This document shows, piece by piece, positions 17,906 through 31,561 of a stretch of DNA of 32,000 bases. The stretch lies in NCBI GenBank assembly GCA_002952755.1, contig CP025011.1, positions 480,001 to 512,000 on the forward strand, in the 5' to 3' direction. The position numbers and the translations under genes were made by a program. Under the pieces are notes generated by a model that saw only the letters and a list, made by a program, of their open reading frames with translations, did not search any database and was not told the origin of the DNA. The DNA comes from Candidatus Saccharimonadota bacterium. GTDB lineage: Bacteria; Patescibacteriota; Saccharimonadia; Saccharimonadales; UBA4665. Numbering within the stretch: the first letter of the stretch is position 1; each line of letters opens with the position of its first letter.

Positions 17906-18622
17906 ATGTATCAATACCTCGTTGGCATGGCGATTGCGGGGTTCGTGTGGGCGCTGTTCTTTGTTGTGCGGAGAGATTTGCGGCGCACTATGCTGTGGGG
18001 TGGGCTCCTGTATGTTGCGTTGCTGAGCGTGGGCTTTGTGGCATACAGGCTGCTCTTCCATGACGTGACGCGCTCGATCACGCCAGGATATTGGTCGCCG
18101 CCAACGCTACTTGAATTGCAGAGCAAGACGCATGGCTACGGCATTGAGGACGCACTCTTTATGTTCTTTTTGGCTGGTAGTGCAACCTGTTTGTACGAGA
18201 TATGCTGCCACAAGAAACTCGAGTCTGTTGACCTTAAAAACCCCCGTATAAAGGCTATGTTGTTGGTCGTTTTGGTCAGCGCTATCGGTTCACTCGTGCT
18301 TTATAAGCTTTTTTATATGAATGACATATATTTGCTGATCGATTCCAGCCTATTTGCAGCCCTGGCTATATGGTGGATGCGGAGAGACTTGATTGTACAG
18401 TCGGTTGTGGGCGGCATATTCTTCGTAATCCTTTATATTGCAGAGTTTTCTGTCTTTACCCATATATTTTCGCATTTTATTGCCAACTACTATCATTTGC
18501 GAGCTACGAGTGGCGTCTTGCTGCTGGGGATTCCGTTGGAAGAGTACCTATATGGGCTAGCCTTTGGTCTGTTCTGGACGCCACTCTATCGCTTTATATA
18601 TGGGCTACAAAGAGCAGACTAG
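17906..18622 (+). CDS. lycopene cyclase domain-containing membrane protein (two-repeat, CrtYc/Yd-like)
   Basis: 238 aa and polytopic. It has two copies of the family's acidic motif at helix starts: GYGIEDALFMFFLAG and LGIPLEEYLYGLAFGLFW (PxEE-type). Confidence 0.7.
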   Translation: MYQYLVGMAIAGFVWALFFVVRRDLRRTMLWGGLLYVALLSVGFVAYRLLFHDVTRSITPGYWSPPTLLELQSKTHGYGIEDALFMFFLAGSATCLYEICCHKKLESVDLKNPRIKAMLLVVLVSAIGSLVLYKLFYMNDIYLLIDSSLFAALAIWWMRRDLIVQSVVGGIFFVILYIAEFSVFTHIFSHFIANYYHLRATSGVLLLGIPLEEYLYGLAFGLFWTPLYRFIYGLQRAD

Positions 18623-18628
18623 CGTTTT

Positions 18629-19585
18629 ATGGGCATACAGACCGTTCCTACTGAGTGGTCTGTTACAATAGATGACATGACATTTAAACAACTGAAACAA
18701 TCATCATATGCGCGGCTTTACATTCTGGGCGCCCTCTTATTATTGGTAGCCGGCGGCTTGTGGTGGAATAAGGTGGCCACAGACCCGCAGCAGGTCTTTT
18801 CGGCAATGATTGCCCAGAGTTTGCAAACCAGCGGCGTCACATTAGAGTCAGCACAGACAGTTAATGGCACCAATGCCAAGCAGACAGTGCAATATGCATT
18901 GGGCGCTCAAAATATGAGCCATTCCATTACCACACTTACGCAGCCCGGTACGGTAGTAACTGACGAGATGATTGGCACGCCAGGCACTGACTACACGAGA
19001 TACGATAGCATCCAGACTACTCAGAAAACGCAGTCGGGTAAGGCACTCAATCCATCCAAGGTGATTGGCGTATGGGCGAAGAGCCCGACTACGGGCGCTG
19101 GCAGTAATGCCTCGTTATCGCAGGCCATCCTCGGCACCTCGCTACCACTTGGCGGCATCGTTGTGCCGATGGGCACGCTCACCCCAGCGCAACGGGCGAC
19201 ATTACTTCAAGAAATCAAAACTGACAAAGTGTATCAGGCGTCATATAAAAACGTACAGCGTAAGACCGTGGCAGGTCGTTTGTTGTATACCTACGATGTG
19301 ACGATTCCGCCGATCGGATATGTCAAACTGCTGCGCAATTTTTCCCACGACATTGGGCTGCATGATCTCGACCAGGTGAATCCAGATAGTTACAAGGGTC
19401 AGCCCGACCTGCATCTGCGTTTAACGGTTGATGTGCGTGCTAGTCATCTGGCTCAAGTGTCGCTCACCCAGGGGCAATATTCTCAATCGTATACAGGATA
19501 CGACGAGCCGGTGCAGGTTGCTGTGCCTAAAAAGGCTATCTCCGTTGCTCAGCTGCAGCAGCTCTTGCAGCAAATGCAGCTGTAA
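18629..19585 (+). CDS. membrane-anchored extracytoplasmic protein (318 aa), paralog of the next gene
   Basis: A single TM (YARLYILGALLLLVAGGLWW) is followed by a Thr/Gln-rich soluble domain. It begins 6 nt after the preceding stop. Confidence 0.65.
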   Translation: MGIQTVPTEWSVTIDDMTFKQLKQSSYARLYILGALLLLVAGGLWWNKVATDPQQVFSAMIAQSLQTSGVTLESAQTVNGTNAKQTVQYALGAQNMSHSITTLTQPGTVVTDEMIGTPGTDYTRYDSIQTTQKTQSGKALNPSKVIGVWAKSPTTGAGSNASLSQAILGTSLPLGGIVVPMGTLTPAQRATLLQEIKTDKVYQASYKNVQRKTVAGRLLYTYDVTIPPIGYVKLLRNFSHDIGLHDLDQVNPDSYKGQPDLHLRLTVDVRASHLAQVSLTQGQYSQSYTGYDEPVQVAVPKKAISVAQLQQLLQQMQL

Positions 19586-19676: not shown

Positions 19677-21158
19677 ATGGACCCCTTACAAAAGCCTTCA
19701 ACGACAAACGAACCTGAAGAGCAGCTGCACGAAAAGGCAGGCGAGCCGCAGTCAGATAACCAGACGATGAGTACGCAATCTTCAGAAAGCGAGTTTACGC
19801 CTGCTGGAGCAGGTGATGCTGTCACTGATTCGTCTGTTGGTCCGGCTCCGGAGGCGCCAAGCGCTCCGTCTGTTGCTACTGACGCGCAACTTGCGGATAA
19901 AAGTTCTGACCTGCCGAATACCGACCCGCCTGCATCTGGCGCCAGCACAGGCGACGTAACTGCAGAGAACCCGGGTGCGCCAGAAGGGAGTCCATCATTT
20001 CAGTCATCAGCAACTGTAAACCAGTCTTTTGCTTCTGATGAGACATCGCCGCATGCATCCGCCCCTGATAGTCCACCTCCTGCCTCGCCCGATAGTGTCG
20101 TAATGGGTAGCATGGGGGGCGATGCCACCGTGATGGGTGCTGCCGCGGTAAGGGCTGGCAAGAAGAGTAGAAGGCGTTTACTGGCTTTTGTTGCTCTAGG
20201 TGCTGTACTCCTACTGCTGGCTGGTGGCGCCTCGGCGCTCTACTATGTCATGAATAAGCCGCAGAATGTGCTCGATATGGCACTTTCCAACGCCTTTTCT
20301 GATAAGACCAAAACAGCGGCCTTTGACGGCGAAATAGTGGGCACTGATGCAAATAAAAAGCAGGCCGGCAAGCTTACTTATAACGGTGCATTCGGCCAAG
20401 CCGGCGCGCTGACAGTCAGCGCCAAGCTCGACGCCGTTGTCACGAACGTCAACTTCGATATACGTAGTGTAGACGGCAGCTCTTATTTTGTACGTGTCGG
20501 CGGGCTGGAGGGCTTGCCGCAACTACTGAGTACTAGTGAAGCTAAACAGCTCGCTCCGCTAGTAAGCACCGTGAATAATCAGTGGTTCGAGATCAACCAG
20601 AGCCTCATTAAGCAGTTCACCGGTAGTGAAGTATCTACCAAGTTGAGCGATAGCGACCGCACTAAGATGGTGAACGCCTATAAGCAACATAGATTCTTAG
20701 TGGCCAAGCAAAGTTTCGTCGATCAGGACATTCTGGGCAAGGCTGCGCACCACTATCGGGTCGCCGTCGATAAGACGAAATTGAAGGCCTTCTATGCTGC
20801 GCTTAAGAACGCTAACTTAGACACTACGAAAATAACCAGCGACCAGCTAAGCGCCTTCGACACGACAATTGATGACTCAAAAATCGATACCTATTTGGTA
20901 GACGTCTGGATTGACAAAGGCGACCGTTTATTCCGACAAGTAGCCTATACCAAAACTGAGTCTGATGGCAGCAGTACTAGCCTCCGCTTCACTGTTGATA
21001 GCTACAATCAACCGCTGAACGTAGAAAAACCAGCAGGGTCCAAGTCGCTGCTTGACGTGCTAGGTCAATTTGTGGGCAATGACAGCATCGACACCTTGAA
21101 GCCGATAAACGACAACAATATTAACATGTTCAATCTTCCTTCGGGTATTTCGCTTTAA
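19677..21158 (+). CDS. membrane-anchored extracytoplasmic protein with ~170-aa acidic Pro/Ser/Ala-rich N-terminal region (493 aa)
   Basis: The N-terminus is low-complexity, followed by KKSRRR and a TM (LLAFVALGAVLLLLAGGASALYYV). The ~300-aa domain after it aligns loosely by eye with the 18629 protein. Confidence 0.7.
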   Translation: MDPLQKPSTTNEPEEQLHEKAGEPQSDNQTMSTQSSESEFTPAGAGDAVTDSSVGPAPEAPSAPSVATDAQLADKSSDLPNTDPPASGASTGDVTAENPGAPEGSPSFQSSATVNQSFASDETSPHASAPDSPPPASPDSVVMGSMGGDATVMGAAAVRAGKKSRRRLLAFVALGAVLLLLAGGASALYYVMNKPQNVLDMALSNAFSDKTKTAAFDGEIVGTDANKKQAGKLTYNGAFGQAGALTVSAKLDAVVTNVNFDIRSVDGSSYFVRVGGLEGLPQLLSTSEAKQLAPLVSTVNNQWFEINQSLIKQFTGSEVSTKLSDSDRTKMVNAYKQHRFLVAKQSFVDQDILGKAAHHYRVAVDKTKLKAFYAALKNANLDTTKITSDQLSAFDTTIDDSKIDTYLVDVWIDKGDRLFRQVAYTKTESDGSSTSLRFTVDSYNQPLNVEKPAGSKSLLDVLGQFVGNDSIDTLKPINDNNINMFNLPSGISL

Positions 21159-25810: not shown

Positions 25811-26812
25811 TCATTGAGTCGTAAAATAGCTCGCCCAAATTCTCTTTGGATCATCAATAAGAGATTTTTGTTTCTTCCTAACCCGGATAACCAGGTTCAT
25901 CGTAATGTTATCCACTACGATAGTACTCTGGTTGCTTCGCGTTAAAGCGTCAAATCTTTGTGCATCGGCTGGCGATGCACAAAGCAGACCATGAGGCATG
26001 TTTATGCGATCGTGCGTACCCACGCGGATCATGTTTTGATCACAAATATAAGCTAACAATTGTTTAGTAGTCTGCGCCGCCTCGCGCCAGATGTCCAACA
26101 TGTCTATAGACAAGGGAAGGCACTTATTTTTGGAACCGCCACTTCCTATAGATGTGGTAATCGCGATAAGCCATACATTCTTCTTGGGTGATGTAGTTTG
26201 CTCAGGTATGAATATACATCCGGGAGCATGCTTATTTTTGTTGTGCAGTAGCCTAAACGATGCATCCAACCTATATATGGCTTGAAAAAACTTACCTGCC
26301 ATAAGGACTTCTCTGTCTAAAACCTGTTTGACGAACCCTCTATCTTTCGGTTCCAAGTCCCGATACCATTTTTTCCTATAGAATCCATTAATACCAGATG
26401 CGCGCGCATAGAGCGACCGCTTTTGTTGTAACGTTAAATGTTTATGCTTATTGCTTCCCCTGTGAAAAAAGTTCTGAGATGCTTCTTTATCTCCAGAAAT
26501 CAGTTCCTCCAGTTGTTTGATATTGCCGCTGGAGTTGACCAATAACACGGCAAGATCGTCAAATAATTCTAGAATCTGTCCCATGTAGTCAATGTATTTC
26601 CAAACCGTACTATGTTGGAGCGATCCGTCCGCCGCGCTATCTATGGCATTTCGGATTTCTCTGTCGGTTTCGTCTATGGAAGCAATTTTGTTATGCAAGA
26701 ATTGCAGGTAACACTGCGTGTATATAAGCGCACCAGGTAAAAATTTTTTGATAAATTCTGCTTCTGGCATACCTTTCTCGCTTTTATAGTCTGATATTTT
26801 CGGTGTGGCCAT
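25811..26812 (-). CDS. hypothetical protein (333 aa), low-GC orphan
   Basis: Clean ORF. The ORF maximum starts at GTG 26845. ATG 26812 lies 6 nt downstream of a minus-strand TATAAT (26824..26819). No domain recognised. Confidence 0.6.
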   Translation of the reverse strand: MATPKISDYKSEKGMPEAEFIKKFLPGALIYTQCYLQFLHNKIASIDETDREIRNAIDSAADGSLQHSTVWKYIDYMGQILELFDDLAVLLVNSSGNIKQLEELISGDKEASQNFFHRGSNKHKHLTLQQKRSLYARASGINGFYRKKWYRDLEPKDRGFVKQVLDREVLMAGKFFQAIYRLDASFRLLHNKNKHAPGCIFIPEQTTSPKKNVWLIAITTSIGSGGSKNKCLPLSIDMLDIWREAAQTTKQLLAYICDQNMIRVGTHDRINMPHGLLCASPADAQRFDALTRSNQSTIVVDNITMNLVIRVRKKQKSLIDDPKRIWASYFTTQ

Positions 26813-27033
26813 GTGTTTATTATAGAGGGATCGGTACCGATTCACTGTATGGCGAAAGTCAGCTTACTACCCCTAACATTCGAGTAGATAAATGGAGATA
26901 TGCTATACTGCAAAATAATATGAGCAAAGTCCCGAGTAATTTGCTACGACTCCTTGCCCGCTAGGGCGTTTTTCTTTTTACCGATTTTTAGCAACAAACA
27001 GCAGATATAGCAGATACCTGATAGGATAGAAGC

Positions 27034-29907
27034 ATGAAACGATACAACCCTAAAGAGATTGAGCCCAAGTGGCAGCAAAAATGGTCCGAAGATAAGACGT
27101 ACGAGGCTTCGGACGATCCAAGCGGCAAACCCAAGAAGTATATTTTGGAATTCTTCCCATACCCGAGCGGAGCCGCCATGCACGTGGGCCATGTGCGCAA
27201 CTACACCATTGGGGACGCCATGAGCCGCCATGCACGCATGATGGGTTACGACGTACTGCACCCGATGGGTTGGGACGCCTTCGGCTTGCCAGCTGAGAAT
27301 TATGCGATTAAAACCGGCATCAGCCCCAAGCAGGCGATTGCCGAAAATACTGGTCGCTTTAAGCAGCAACTGACTCAAATGGGCTTTGGCTATGATTGGT
27401 CGCGCGAGTTTGCCAGCTCAGACCCGGAATATTACCGCTGGACCCAGTGGTTCTTCCTACTGCTGCACAAGCGTGGCCTTGCTTACCAAAAAGAGAGTTT
27501 GCAGTGGTGGTGCCCCGTGGATAAAACGGTGTTGGCCAACGAGCAGGTCGAAAACGGTAAGTGCTGGCGCTGCGGCTCGGAGGTGGAGAAGAAGTCGCTC
27601 AAGCAGTGGTTCTTCAAGATTACAGAGTATGCCGAGCGATTGGAAAAAGATCTAGACGACGTTGATTGGAGCGACTCCATCAAAGCCATGCAGCGCAACT
27701 GGATAGGCCGCAGCAAGGGTGCTGAGGTGGTATTCGCTATGGATGGATCTGACGAAAAAATTACGGTGTTTACGACTCGGGCAGATACGCTGTTTGGTGC
27801 CACCTTCTTAGTGCTCGCCCCTGAGCATCCGCTGCTCAAGACGATTACCGCGCCGGAGCACCGCGCCCAAGTCGAGAATTATCTGCAGAAAACACGTAAT
27901 AAATCGGATATCGAGCGCCAGGAAACCAATCGGGAAAAAACCGGCGTCTTTACGGGTGCATATGCTATCAATCCCGTGAATGGCGAGAAATTGCCCATTT
28001 GGACGTCTGACTACGTATTGGTGGGCTACGGCACGGGCGCAATCATGGCGGTGCCAGCCCACGATGAGCGCGACTGGGCATTTGCCCAGGCCTTTAAGCT
28101 GCCAGTTGTCCCGGTAATCGAGCCCGAAACGGGCACACCGCAGGAAAATCCGGAAACACGCTTAAGTATTGTGGCTATTGTGCGCAACCCACGCACCAAT
28201 GAATATCTATCGATTAATTGGGGGAAGCTCGGCGGTAACCTGTTCATCGGCGGTGGCCGCGAAGCAAATGAAGATATTGTCGAGACGGCTAAGCGGGAGA
28301 TTGCCGAAGAAACCGGCTACCGCAATCTGAAGCTGGTCGCGCAAACTGATCGCATACACCATCACTACTTCGCCCATAGCAAAAATGTGGCTCGCTATAT
28401 CGAAGCCTATGGCCTGTTGTTTGATCTCGAAGACGAGACGCGCGATGAGCAGAGACTGGAGCCGGACGAGCAGGGCAAGTTCACCGTTGAATGGTTGCCG
28501 GCGTCAGCAGCTGAGGCGGTTATTACCGATGAGTTGCATACCACTTGCTATCGCCTACTAGTAAAAGGAGAGTGCTACCACGGCGAAGGCATCATGATGC
28601 ACTCCGGCTCATATGACGGTTTGCGCTCCAGTGAAGCACGTGAGAAAATCGTTGCCGATCTTGAAGCGAAGCACCTCGGCAAGGAACGGGTTAATTACAA
28701 AATGCGCGACTGGCTGATTAGCCGCCAGCGTTACTGGGGTGCGCCGATCCCGATGATTCATTGTGCGAAGGACGGCGTGGTTCCCGTACCTGAAGACCAA
28801 CTACCGGTGTTGTTGCCTGATATGCAAAGCTACGAGCCAAGCGGTGATGGCCGCAGCCCATTGGCCCGCGTGCCGGAATTTGTGAACACAACGTGCCCCA
28901 TATGCGGCGGCCCGGCCGAGCGCGAAACAGACACTATGGACGGCTTTGCCTGCTCTAGCTGGTATCCGATGCGCTTTGCCGACCCCCGTAACAACGACCG
29001 TCCATTCGACGCCGTAAAGGTGCAGCGTTGGCTGCCGGTAGATTATTATATTGGCGGTGCAGAGCATGCAGTTATGCACCTTTTGTATATCCGTATGTGG
29101 ACCAAAGTGATGCAGGACGAAGGGTTGGTCGACTTTGGCGAACCTTTTACCGGTCTGCGCAATCAGGGGATGATCTTGGCCCCGGACGGTCGCAAGATGA
29201 GTAAGAGCTGGGGCAATGTTATCGCGCCTGATGATCTTATCGAGCAAGGCTACGGTGCCGACGCCATTCGCGTTATGGAGCTCTTTATCGGTCCCTGGAA
29301 TCAGTCGGCTAACTGGAGCGTAGAGGGCATGGGCGGCAGCTTCCGCTTCCTGCAGCGGGTGTGGGCACTCAGCCAGGACTACCTCACGAAAAATGAGCCA
29401 GCCAACCCGGCAGACGATATTGCAATCAAGCAGGTAATGCATCGGACCATCAAAAAGGTGAGTACCGATATGGAGGCAATGGGCTTCAACACCGCAATTG
29501 CCGCGGTTATGGAGGCAGTCAACGAACTCTATCGACTGAAGGTCACCGTGCCGTTTGGTGCTGCTCCAGAGGCCTGGCGCTGGGCGATTGAGTCACTCTT
29601 GCTACTACTTGCCCCATTTGTGCCGCACATCACTGAGGAGTTATGGATGCAGCTTGGTCACACCGATTCTATCCATCTTGCCAAGTGGCCGGTGTATGAA
29701 GAACAATACCTTACAAGCGACAGGATGACGATCGTCATTCAAATTAACGGCAAGGTACGCAGTCAGATCGAGGTCAGTTCATCCGCCACCGAAGAAGAAG
29801 TCACGGCTCAAGCCAAAGAAGACAAAAAAGCCGTCGTTTATTTAACCAATCAGACTCCTAAAAAAACTATCTACGTACCCGGCAAGCTTGTTAATTTCGT
29901 TCTTTAG
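27034..29907 (+). CDS. leuS: leucine--tRNA ligase (957 aa) carrying an internal Nudix-like insertion
   Basis: HIGH variant HVGH, ZN-1 CPVD...CWRCGS, CP1 editing motifs TTRADTLFGATF and AVPAHDERDWAFA, ZN-2 CPICGG...C, KMSKS, and the C-terminal domain. Confidence 0.95.
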   Translation: MKRYNPKEIEPKWQQKWSEDKTYEASDDPSGKPKKYILEFFPYPSGAAMHVGHVRNYTIGDAMSRHARMMGYDVLHPMGWDAFGLPAENYAIKTGISPKQAIAENTGRFKQQLTQMGFGYDWSREFASSDPEYYRWTQWFFLLLHKRGLAYQKESLQWWCPVDKTVLANEQVENGKCWRCGSEVEKKSLKQWFFKITEYAERLEKDLDDVDWSDSIKAMQRNWIGRSKGAEVVFAMDGSDEKITVFTTRADTLFGATFLVLAPEHPLLKTITAPEHRAQVENYLQKTRNKSDIERQETNREKTGVFTGAYAINPVNGEKLPIWTSDYVLVGYGTGAIMAVPAHDERDWAFAQAFKLPVVPVIEPETGTPQENPETRLSIVAIVRNPRTNEYLSINWGKLGGNLFIGGGREANEDIVETAKREIAEETGYRNLKLVAQTDRIHHHYFAHSKNVARYIEAYGLLFDLEDETRDEQRLEPDEQGKFTVEWLPASAAEAVITDELHTTCYRLLVKGECYHGEGIMMHSGSYDGLRSSEAREKIVADLEAKHLGKERVNYKMRDWLISRQRYWGAPIPMIHCAKDGVVPVPEDQLPVLLPDMQSYEPSGDGRSPLARVPEFVNTTCPICGGPAERETDTMDGFACSSWYPMRFADPRNNDRPFDAVKVQRWLPVDYYIGGAEHAVMHLLYIRMWTKVMQDEGLVDFGEPFTGLRNQGMILAPDGRKMSKSWGNVIAPDDLIEQGYGADAIRVMELFIGPWNQSANWSVEGMGGSFRFLQRVWALSQDYLTKNEPANPADDIAIKQVMHRTIKKVSTDMEAMGFNTAIAAVMEAVNELYRLKVTVPFGAAPEAWRWAIESLLLLLAPFVPHITEELWMQLGHTDSIHLAKWPVYEEQYLTSDRMTIVIQINGKVRSQIEVSSSATEEEVTAQAKEDKKAVVYLTNQTPKKTIYVPGKLVNFVL
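28120..28581 (+). other. Nudix hydrolase-like domain nested within LeuRS (residues ~363-516)
   Basis: Exact Nudix box G-x5-E-x7-R-E-U-x-E-E-x-G-U, read as GGREANEDIVETAKREIAEETGY (28252..28320). Strand-like RLSIVAIVRNPRTNEYLSINW precedes it. The insert is in frame, with no stops or frameshifts. Confidence 0.75.
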
Positions 29908-30057: not shown

Positions 30058-30627
30058 CTATTTCGAAGTATGATGCCCCTTAATTGCAGCTTCGACGACA
30101 TCGCGCGGGAGTTTGGCCGATCCCAGTAGGGTGTCGCGCACTTTTTCTAGGGCGTCACTGCCAACATCGCCGGCTGCATCAAGTACTCCGCTTACTGCTG
30201 CCTCGGCTGCCTTAGACGAATCTGCACCGATATCGCCTGCAGCCTTGATCGCTCCCTCGACAGTAGAGATGGCTACTGCGCCAATATCACCGCCGGTTTC
30301 GCTTGTAGCTTTAACTACTCCCCGAGCTGCCGCTTGCGTAGCCTCAACGACGTCGCCGCCAACGTGGCTAACTCCGCTAATCGCACCATGCATTATCTCC
30401 TGCGTGGCATCCGTCAGAGATGTCCCCACTTTGCTCGCACCATGAATGGCGCCGCTGGCTACTGCTGTTACGCCTTCAATTCCAGCTTGCGACACTTCGC
30501 CAGTGCCCTGAAGAATATTGACGATTTGGTGTTTTACCGTTCCGGTTACGGCGCTTATAATGTCATCGGCACCCTGGATAGCTGCAACTACTGCGTTACT
30601 TGTCTCATTAATAATTTTTTCTAGCAT
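30058..30627 (-). CDS. Ala/Gly/Val-rich protein made of ~8 tandem 22-residue repeats (189 aa)
   Basis: Start at ATG 30627, with a strong Shine-Dalgarno (aaggaaggtgg) upstream. The longer ORF to 30786 is Arg-rich and not protein-like. The 22-aa register is visible by eye (e.g. ...GAIKAAGD / IGADSSKAAEAAVSGVLDAAGD / VGSDALEK...). Confidence 0.65.
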   Translation of the reverse strand: MLEKIINETSNAVVAAIQGADDIISAVTGTVKHQIVNILQGTGEVSQAGIEGVTAVASGAIHGASKVGTSLTDATQEIMHGAISGVSHVGGDVVEATQAAARGVVKATSETGGDIGAVAISTVEGAIKAAGDIGADSSKAAEAAVSGVLDAAGDVGSDALEKVRDTLLGSAKLPRDVVEAAIKGHHTSK

Positions 30628-30859
30628 ACGCCACCTTCCTTTTAATGCTGGTCTTTCCACTTTAGTCTGCTTACTGCGAACTGGCAATCTAAAATGCAGG
30701 GATGACCTCGCATTTTGCGCAGTTCTTCTCCTGCTAACCTCTATTGGACTGGCGATACTGAGCTTATATAGTCTTAAAAAATGCAAAAACCAAACTGAAG
30801 CCTCAAGCGTACCTATTTTATAGTTTACCTGCCAGAATTATCCTGTAGAGTTGTTAACT

Positions 30860-31561
30860 ATGAGCAGTCGATCGGCAGAATCATTTACGCTTACTCCGGC
30901 GCAAATGTTAGAGCGCTTTCCCGCAACCGCTAAAGAGAGTGTCTATAATTGGCCATTCGCTGACATACCCCTATCTGCACAACGTAAAACTACGCCTCCA
31001 ATGGAGATACGAAGACATAAGGCAGGAGGGGATCTGCTTCGCGTTATGGGTCTTATTGTGCCGGACCATTATCACGATGATCCATCGGCCACGATGCTCC
31101 TCAAAAAAGGCAACGACCGCATGACCCTTAGGCTAGAAGTAGAGGGCGCCCAACATTACTGGCAACTGGCAGGCTTGTTTATGGAGGCGAGCGTAGAACT
31201 TAATAAGTCGTCTGAAATGCAAGCCGCCGGCATACTCCACGAGGTTGTCGGGATTGAACAGCCCTTGTTGCCCACTCAGTTAGGCCCGGGTGTAGCTCGT
31301 GGCATAGTATCGAAGATCCGGGTCGGGTCTAATGAAATGACTGAGGGTATGACGCTGTGGGCTGGCGGAGGCGCTAGGAGCATTTCTTGGGGGGCGAGTG
31401 GTGCGCGTAGGTTTGCAAGAGAGCATACGCTTGAACTCGACAGCGTAGTTGCTATAGGGGTGGATAATCACTATTGGGATCCTTCTCGCGATAGCAGATA
31501 CTATGTGATTAAACCTCCTGGTCAGGAAGGGCGGCCAGCGCCCACATTACCCACTATATAA
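30860..31561 (+). CDS. hypothetical protein (233 aa)
   Basis: ORF divergent from the repeat protein. The start is ATG 30860 or TTG 30851. No motif recognised. Confidence 0.55.
   Translation: MSSRSAESFTLTPAQMLERFPATAKESVYNWPFADIPLSAQRKTTPPMEIRRHKAGGDLLRVMGLIVPDHYHDDPSATMLLKKGNDRMTLRLEVEGAQHYWQLAGLFMEASVELNKSSEMQAAGILHEVVGIEQPLLPTQLGPGVARGIVSKIRVGSNEMTEGMTLWAGGGARSISWGASGARRFAREHTLELDSVVAIGVDNHYWDPSRDSRYYVIKPPGQEGRPAPTLPTI

Follow-up and report, generated by a model that had tools for sequence, protein, structure and literature searches.

A leucyl-tRNA synthetase with a nested Nudix domain

Bacterial leucyl-tRNA synthetases (LeuRS) of known structure, such as those of Thermus thermophilus (Tth; 1h3n, 2bte) and Escherichia coli (4aq7, 4arc), are built in the order of catalytic core, ZN1, CP1 editing domain, anticodon-binding domain and C-terminal domain. 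We analysed the LeuRS gene (leuS) on a 32,000-nucleotide stretch of a Candidatus Saccharimonadota genome (GCA_002952755.1, contig CP025011.1, positions 480,001 to 512,000; hereafter the window), the product of which keeps this order and has a complete Nudix domain spliced into a surface loop of CP1. Identity to Tth LeuRS was 41–42% overall (Foldseek) and roughly 55–60% by eye in the conserved blocks, and a Foldseek search with the full-length model of the window protein returned LeuRS structures exclusively, with template modelling (TM) scores of 0.77–0.87 to bacterial LeuRS in complex with tRNA; the editing-site residues of these enzymes are conserved in the window LeuRS. Where Tth LeuRS has three residues in a CP1 hairpin, however, the window LeuRS has a Nudix domain of approximately 140 residues, and where Tth LeuRS has a leucine-specific domain it has the tetrapeptide PDGR. 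The inserted domain has the fold, the canonical box and about the size of compact Nudix hydrolases (2azw, 3i7u, Tth Ndx1, E. coli RppH, NudI). The LeuRS of Mycoplasma mobile likewise has a tetrapeptide (GKDG) before the KMSKS motif and no leucine-specific domain (PMC3643597), but it also lacks CP1; the window LeuRS has an intact CP1, made larger by the Nudix domain.

Domain analysis assigned the 957-amino-acid (aa) protein to the bacterial LeuRS family TIGR00396 (leuS_bact; 1042.4 bits against a cutoff of 548.4) and identified the Pfam domains tRNA-synt_1, the LeuRS editing domain PF13603, Anticodon_1 and NUDIX PF00293. In the full protein PF00293 matched aa 378–493 with 39.9 bits (gathering cutoff 21.1), and the segment 28120–28581 alone scored 45.3 bits. 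The match to PF13603 (aa 221–371) covered positions 1–149 of the 185 in the profile, so that the editing-domain model is broken off at position 149. In the alignment to 1h3n, residues 1–373 corresponded to Tth 1–372 and residues 514–716 to Tth 376–579, with the approximately 140 extra residues standing in place of Tth 373–375 at the tip of the CP1 hairpin. A sequence-only reading of this DNA had proposed a Nudix domain nested in CP1 by an in-frame insertion as opposed to a fusion at a terminus, and both points were confirmed, with conserved LeuRS sequence aligning to Tth on both sides. The Nudix box that it had placed at nucleotides 28252–28320, GGREANEDIVETAKREIAEETGY, is an exact match to the pattern GX5EX7REUXEEXGU. 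The features of the gene, all on the plus strand, are as follows.

27034..29907, plus strand: leuS open reading frame (ORF), 957 aa, bacterial-type LeuRS with the nested Nudix domain (TIGR00396, Pfam, Tth alignment)
27181..27192, plus strand: HIGH-type signature HVGH of the class I catalytic core, aa 50–53 (direct sequence reading)
27703..28152, plus strand: N-terminal part of the CP1 editing domain, aa 224–373 (PF13603 at aa 221–371; Tth alignment)
27742..27759, plus strand: CP1 hairpin MDGSDE, aa 237–242, without an insert in the window LeuRS
27772..27789, plus strand: editing-site motif TTRADT, aa 247–252 (alignment A1)
28063–28065, plus strand: D344, editing pocket residue (alignment A1)
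28153..28572, plus strand: nested Nudix domain, aa 374–513 (PF00293, AlphaFold2, Foldseek)
28252..28320, plus strand: Nudix box, aa 407–429 (exact pattern match)
28366..28395, plus strand: X-loop region YFAHSKNVAR, aa 445–454, with aromatic 446, K450 and R454 (subfamily conservation)
28468..28494, plus strand: E479 (28468–28470) and W487 (28492–28494), conserved in the subfamily (alignments)
28573..28698, plus strand: C-terminal part of the CP1 editing domain, aa 514–555 (residue 514 onward corresponds to Tth 376 onward)
29182..29208, plus strand: tetrapeptide PDGR (aa 717–720; 29182–29193) followed by KMSKS (aa 721–725) (Tth alignment)
29425..29799, plus strand: anticodon-binding domain PF08264, aa 798–922 (Pfam)

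In alignment A1, which consists of 103 sequences of close homologues, H50, G52 and H53 of the HVGH signature were invariant, as were the editing residues T247, T248, D251, T252 and D344, and R249 was conserved in at least 90% of sequences. The TTRADT residues together with D344 presumably form the post-transfer editing pocket, as in E. coli LeuRS, and with T247, T248, D251, T252 and D344 invariant, CP1 editing would be expected to work. The encoded protein thus appears to be a functional bacterial LeuRS whose synthetic and CP1 editing sites look intact. The description of all canonical modules as intact in the sequence-only reading held for the HIGH and KMSKS signatures and for the CP1 editing residues, but not for the leucine-specific domain: residues 716 to 721 span Tth 579 to 637, with PDGR between them, and the relatives have the consensus PDGQ at this position just before KMSKS. 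This loss leaves membership of the LeuRS family unaffected because the domain is dispensable or absent in some bacteria; the LeuRS of Bacillus subtilis and M. mobile are without it, and the M. mobile tetrapeptide can functionally replace the leucine-specific domain of E. coli (PMC3643597).

Fold and authenticity of the insert

AlphaFold2 (AF2) modelled the full-length protein with a mean pLDDT of 87.7 and a pTM of 0.74 (103 homologues in the alignment), within which the insert reached a pLDDT of approximately 86–95 and showed the strand and helix order of a Nudix domain. Modelled alone, the insert had a pLDDT of 93.8, in agreement with the earlier suggestion of a complete Nudix fold. The model is an alpha/beta/alpha sandwich with the box as loop-helix-loop, the helix at aa 415–427 bearing the REUXEE residues. 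Foldseek matched it to compact Nudix hydrolases at probability 1.00 and TM scores up to 0.79, the top neighbour being the MutT/Nudix protein 2azw of Enterococcus faecalis (TM 0.76/0.79), which was also matched over its full length in a profile search of the PDB (E 2.4e-9). Further neighbours were NudI, RppH, an ADP-ribose pyrophosphatase, the Aquifex Ap4A hydrolase 3i7u (TM 0.68/0.77), Tth Ndx1 and MutT1. The segment is no ordinary LeuRS linker, since relatives without the insert have 5–30 residues at the site and the segment is modelled with a Nudix fold.

An assembly chimera, or an error of gene calling that fused leuS with a Nudix gene, was rejected as having a negligible probability. The window comes from a metagenome-type assembly, in which such errors would be conceivable, and no support for one was found; against it stand the identical 957-aa protein on four independently assembled contigs (one of 1.45 Mb), the presence of PF00293 in all 120 closest homologues and the same architecture in dozens of 50%-identity clusters, as well as the reading frame, purifying selection and the confident AF2 fold of the whole protein. 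GC content was 0.52–0.53 in the insert and 0.54–0.56 in the flanks, with no break in composition. An insert newly acquired by horizontal transfer, or a mobile element of the intein kind, was also rejected, given the lack of a composition shift, the lineage-wide occurrence and the purifying selection.

Conservation and selection

The 120 closest homologues, at 62–80% identity and mostly labelled Saccharimonadales or Saccharibacteria, retained the strict Nudix box in all but one case (119/120). The box residues G407, R421, E422, E425, E426 and G428 were invariant in A1 and E413 was conserved in at least 90% of sequences. Mean column conservation was 0.50 for the insert compared to 0.83 for the catalytic core. 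Across 145 domains of the wider subfamily, nested and free-standing, E422, E425 and E426 were 97–99% conserved with variant boxes included, K450 was 97% and R454 81–93% conserved, and position 446 was Tyr in 52% and Phe in 42% (94% aromatic). E479 and W487 were invariant in alignments A1 and A2 and were conserved at 91% and 97%, respectively, across the subfamily. E479 is a candidate for a further catalytic residue or metal ligand.

Codon alignments of the closest genomic loci gave pN values of 0.07–0.21 for the insert, no higher than the 0.15–0.30 of CP1 (aa 224–373). Synonymous sites were saturated (pS 0.69–0.81), so that a proper dN/dS was not computable and pN and pS are given in its place. 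The insert is under purifying selection, and on its conserved residues the Nudix domain appears catalytically competent.

Distribution, copy number and sites of insertion

A phmmer search with the insert as query against 1.84 billion cluster representatives gave 262 clusters at E ≤ 1e-3, few enough to define a narrow subfamily. Architecture and nesting were read from the best 150 of these 262. The long proteins among those 150 were LeuRS or LeuRS fragments, except for one low-complexity protein without LeuRS or Nudix similarity (P0201), and no member was nested in another aminoacyl-tRNA synthetase (aaRS). Approximately 30 of the 150 were free-standing proteins of about 160 aa, for example in Candidatus Moranbacteria (KKP58971.1) and Paceibacterota. 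Close copies of the insert were present in 25 GTDB species representatives. Among the 120 closest relatives of one Paceibacterota LeuRS, 81 had the insert and 39 did not, and both states were seen within Adlerbacteria and within Kaiserbacteria; with only a short loop in these 39, the insert is dispensable for LeuRS function. The strict box pattern was failed by 31 of the 81 inserts. Fitch parsimony on a quick neighbour-joining tree gave approximately 20 changes between presence and absence, a number probably inflated by tree error. The LeuRS-Nudix arrangement is widespread but optional across the Patescibacteria, or Candidate Phyla Radiation (CPR).

Between one and three Nudix copies were found per LeuRS. 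The extra copies occupied a second CP1 hairpin (site 2, window aa ~238–242), and LeuRS with two or three copies had them in tandem either at this second hairpin or at the canonical site (site 1). Multi-Nudix LeuRS were P0125, P0127, P0128, P0134, P0138, P0140, P0144, P0200, P0202, P0249, P0150, P0176 and P0256; multiple copies were confirmed by Pfam for P0127 and P0202, and P0134 had Nudix at site 2 only. The domains fell into two paralogous lineages, type A with the canonical box and type B, a single clade with a variant box in which E413 is replaced by Gln and the Arg is displaced while E422, E425 and E426 are retained. The middle copy in multi-Nudix LeuRS was usually of this Q-variant type. 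As both types have members nested at site 1, nested at site 2 and free-standing, capture or excision must have happened several times.

Some of the relatives stood out for other reasons. P0017 (1452 aa) has a 494-aa insertion after window aa 547 that resembles a second LeuRS editing region (FIALSPNHP), explicable either by duplication within the gene or by a misassembled contig. Several MAG records with close Saccharibacteria-type LeuRS-Nudix genes carried taxon labels at odds with this, namely L001 (DATIJU010000009.1, 'Bacillota bacterium'), L011 ('Gammaproteobacteria bacterium') and L017 ('Kaiserbacteria'), which suggests mislabelled or contaminated metagenome bins.

Other nested hydrolases and free-standing relatives

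Nudix was not the only hydrolase nested in these LeuRS. A complete Ham1/ITPase domain (PF01725, E 1e-59) was found in P0196 (aa 952–1179), and Ham1 was also present in P0287, P0337 and P0394; it lies between the catalytic core and the anticodon-binding domain, alongside Nudix, in LeuRS of 1149–1330 aa. A Ser_hydrolase or alpha-beta hydrolase domain (PF06821, PF12697) occupied site 2, equivalent to nucleotides 27742–27759 of the window, in P0049, P0182, P0225, P0240, P0380, P0381 and P0399. A HAD_2 phosphatase (PF13419) in P0232 mapped to a third site (site 3, window aa ~582–630), and precomputed Pfam annotations placed HAD_2, at an unmapped position in the protein, in P0356, P0364 and P0376, all three of which have no Nudix. 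Site 3 of relatives also held a recurrent module of approximately 135 aa with the motif G(T/K)KT(I/V)E(T/S)RA, found in P0002 (after window aa 582), P0170 (aa 595–727) and P0196 (aa 625–768), for which searches of Pfam and of PDB sequences gave no match. These searches lent no support to an ASCH-like identity for the module.

Free-standing and nested Nudix domains had the same signature outside the box, consisting of R376, W396, [YF]446, K450, R454, E479 and W487. One free-standing gene is followed after 2 bp by a leuS with a nested Nudix of its own. A second is found 13 bp downstream of argS, in a cluster rich in dUTPase, CYTH, NTPase_I-T and other Nudix genes, and has as its neighbour an isoleucyl-tRNA synthetase (IleRS) with a nested His_Phos_1 domain. 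A third is located 4 bp downstream of fpg, and two further contexts had no link to an aaRS gene.

The IleRS-type class I synthetase with nested His_Phos_1 is 1167 aa long and was seen at L026 (11386–14889) and also at L027 and L029. At L026 it is flanked by free-standing Nudix genes, with argS upstream, in a neighbourhood also rich in nucleoside deoxyribosyltransferase and dNK genes.

Gene neighbourhood in the window

The genes neighbouring leuS were ordinary housekeeping genes, and an Rfam scan of the window found no T-box or other Rfam family, whether upstream of leuS or elsewhere. The ORFs flanking leuS, 25811–26845 and 30058–30786 (both minus strand), had no Pfam match; the latter codes for 242 aa rich in Ala, Gly and Val with a repetitive pattern resembling G..I.GAS.VG. 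The ORFs 18629–19585, 19677–21158 and 30851–31561 (all plus strand) also had no Pfam match. A 238-aa protein coded at 17906–18622 (plus strand) contains a lycopene cyclase domain (PF18916, 55.7 bits), which seems unexpected for a putatively reduced Saccharibacteria-like genome.

Clues to the substrate

Comparison with the curated NCBIfam models RppH, NudB, YtkD, NudE and MutT gave weak matches throughout. RppH models (NF001938 and related) were matched weakly by 21 of 22 members, with the window segment at 18.7 bits against a cutoff of 116, and the YtkD model had sub-threshold matches in 18 of 22. The model for MutT 8-oxo-(d)GTP diphosphatase (TIGR00586/NF008044) was matched below threshold by 8–9 of 22, with a best E of 1e-7 to 5e-7. 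Sequence and profile searches of the PDB found no full-length similarity to characterised ApnA hydrolases: the lupin Ap4A hydrolase 1f3y was the second-best profile match (E 4e-9) in the box region only, and the Aquifex enzyme 3i7u had an E of 0.35 by single-sequence search. Like the Foldseek comparison of the insert model, these searches pointed to Nudix hydrolases in general and to no particular substrate class. The X-loop, approximately 17 residues after the box, holds the specificity motifs of Nudix subfamilies and contains a Tyr in ApnA hydrolases, a rule of Dunn et al. (1999) as reviewed in PMC5389931. At this distance the window domain has the aromatics Y445 and F446, and aromatic 446 with K450 and R454 appears compatible with a polyphosphate substrate without being diagnostic of one. 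Aminoacyl-tRNA synthetases make Ap3–5N, which Nudix enzymes (RppH/NudH, MutT1, NUDT2) break down (PMC7705103).

Possible roles of the nested domain

To the explanation that the insert is an autonomous house-cleaning Nudix pyrophosphohydrolase, tethered to LeuRS and predicted to be active, we give an even chance. The self-folding domain would sit on the distal CP1 hairpin as an independent lobe and act on a soluble nucleotide-derived substrate, the best candidates for which are (d)NTPs in non-canonical or damaged form and dinucleoside polyphosphates (ApnN). Within a very small genome, LeuRS would give it a carrier that is both essential and constitutively expressed, and the Nudix would be one of several hydrolases captured by Patescibacteria LeuRS (one to three Nudix, Ham1/ITPase, HAD, Ser_hydrolase). 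The fusion is ancient and fixed in the Saccharimonadia-type lineage of the window and has been lost or gained repeatedly in other lineages. The house-cleaning theme is drawn from the nested Ham1, HAD_2 and Ser_hydrolase domains, the copy adjacent to fpg and the cluster with dUTPase, CYTH and NTPase_I-T. The domain probably adds no obligatory step to the LeuRS cycle or to proofreading, because the insert is dispensable in close relatives, free-standing relatives have the same active-site signature and other hydrolases are nested in related LeuRS as well; the Nudix would instead work independently of the LeuRS cycle. Several observations weigh against such a tethered enzyme. In the best 150 of the 262 clusters the subfamily was nested in LeuRS only, which looks too specific for pure piggy-backing, each of its two paralogous lineages was captured at two CP1 hairpins, and a free-standing copy directly precedes a leuS that contains Nudix. 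Approximately one in ten domains has the variant box (E413 to Gln, Arg displaced), the activity of which is uncertain; no curated NCBIfam Nudix equivalog reaches its cutoff for the subfamily, and the top structural neighbour, 2azw, is itself uncharacterised. The specificity of capture for LeuRS and CP1 therefore hints at a functional tie that tethering leaves unexplained.

Such a tie would mean that the Nudix is functionally coupled to LeuRS, with CP1 presenting a LeuRS-bound ligand to it, which we regard as unlikely; the ligand could be the acceptor end of tRNA-Leu (to repair a CCA end that is blocked or pyrophosphorylated, or to process the 5' end) or an adenylate-derived product (ApnN, Np4-capped RNA). 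Taken together with ApnN/cap clearance and tRNA-end repair, coupled function lies somewhere between unlikely and possible. Clearance of LeuRS by-products by an asymmetric ApnN (Ap3–6N) or Np4-cap hydrolase, where Leu-AMP reacts with ATP, NTPs or 5'-triphosphorylated RNA to give dinucleoside polyphosphates or adenylylated RNA 5' ends, is for its part rather doubtful. In essence it is what the sequence-only reading had suggested for Ap4A-type dinucleotides, besides an added proofreading or regulatory activity beside the editing site. It agrees with the production of Ap3–5N by aaRSs and their degradation by Nudix enzymes, although the review that describes both (PMC7705103) makes no mention of LeuRS. 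It agrees also with the conserved aromatic where ApnA hydrolases have Tyr (PMC5389931), a marker that is unspecific given Phe in about half of the family. K450 and R454 could bind a polyphosphate chain, the Aquifex Ap4A and Tth Ap6A hydrolases are structural neighbours (TM 0.66–0.79), free-standing relatives adjoin leuS and argS, and 1f3y ranks second among PDB profile matches, though its match is limited to the box. LeuRS is a weak Ap4A producer, however, and the proximity to argS does not favour an adenylate by-product, because ArgRS needs tRNA to make adenylate. The insert is moreover dispensable in many close relatives, and co-nested Ham1, HAD and Ser_hydrolase are ill-suited to a story specific to Ap4A.

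Action on RNA, either tRNA-Leu on CP1 or RNA 5' ends, appears less probable again; examples would be RppH-like removal of a 5' pyrophosphate or cap and repair of a chemically blocked CCA 3' end, such as one pyrophosphorylated by RSH-type toxins. LeuRS would thereby gain an activity in tRNA repair or proofreading. The confinement of Nudix captures to CP1, which binds the tRNA 3' end, speaks for it, as does their restriction to LeuRS with recurrence at two hairpins in two paralogue lineages. RppH and YtkD were also the commonest, though weak, NCBIfam matches and E. coli RppH structures were among the top Foldseek matches, but the scores are far under cutoff, free-standing members with the same signature are often unlinked to aaRS genes, the insert is dispensable and the tRNA-repair idea is conjectural. 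More doubtful still is a non-catalytic Nudix fold that has a structural part to play, binds tRNA or senses a ligand; it might, for instance, make up for the missing leucine-specific domain or sense nucleotides allosterically, as Nudix domains of the NrtR type do. The absence of the leucine-specific domain from the window LeuRS would fit, as would the Q-variant boxes with displaced Arg in some LeuRS lineages and in middle copies and the Paceibacteria-type inserts that fail the strict box. However, LeuRS can do without the leucine-specific domain when a tetrapeptide takes its place (PMC3643597), and relatives without the insert are 760–830 aa long, a length that suggests no leucine-specific domain either. 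The window LeuRS has an exact box, which nearly all close homologues keep, and because the metal-binding glutamates E422, E425 and E426 are near-universally conserved even in variants, a purely structural role would be unlikely.

Comparison with known systems

Compact Nudix hydrolases share 14–22% identity with the window insert, which differs from them in being nested and in having its own signature (R376, W396, K450, R454, E479 and W487). A full-text search of the searchable literature found no description of the LeuRS-Nudix architecture, and a comprehensive review of the Nudix clan from 2017 is silent on tRNA synthetases (PMC5389931). As far as the searchable literature shows, there is no earlier description of a bacterial aaRS whose editing domain contains a nested catalytic domain with conservation across much of the CPR. 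Precomputed Pfam annotations show the architecture implicitly.

The arrangement provides a testable link between an aaRS and the hygiene of nucleotide pools or alarmones (ApnN) in minimal-genome organisms. Two CP1 hairpins tolerate the insertion of whole domains, a property of use in LeuRS engineering and in work on CP1 dynamics. It also calls for caution among annotators and designers of LeuRS inhibitors (benzoxaboroles target CP1), as LeuRS of CPR and Saccharibacteria differ structurally from the model enzymes. If Nudix and LeuRS were indeed coupled, CPR LeuRS would be bifunctional, joining aminoacylation to nucleotide signalling or tRNA repair, and would form a docking platform for metabolite- and nucleotide-repair hydrolases (Nudix, Ham1, HAD, Ser_hydrolase).

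Appended domains are a familiar feature of eukaryotic synthetases. Housekeeping enzymes joined to a small enzyme, as in the window, also include IleRS-GNAT (NF040702), the mycobacterial MutT1 (Nudix and histidine phosphatase) and NadM-Nudix; NF040702 was in the NCBIfam match list of the window LeuRS, as MutT1 was among the structural neighbours. The occurrence of one to three Nudix, Ham1, HAD and Ser_hydrolase in LeuRS and of His_Phos_1 in IleRS suggests that hitch-hiking of domains on essential translation enzymes is a general strategy of streamlined genomes. IleRS-GNAT, MutT1 and NadM-Nudix are end-to-end fusions, whereas the Nudix of the window LeuRS, which in some relatives is present in one to three copies and in others has Ham1, HAD or Ser_hydrolase modules beside it, is nested within CP1.

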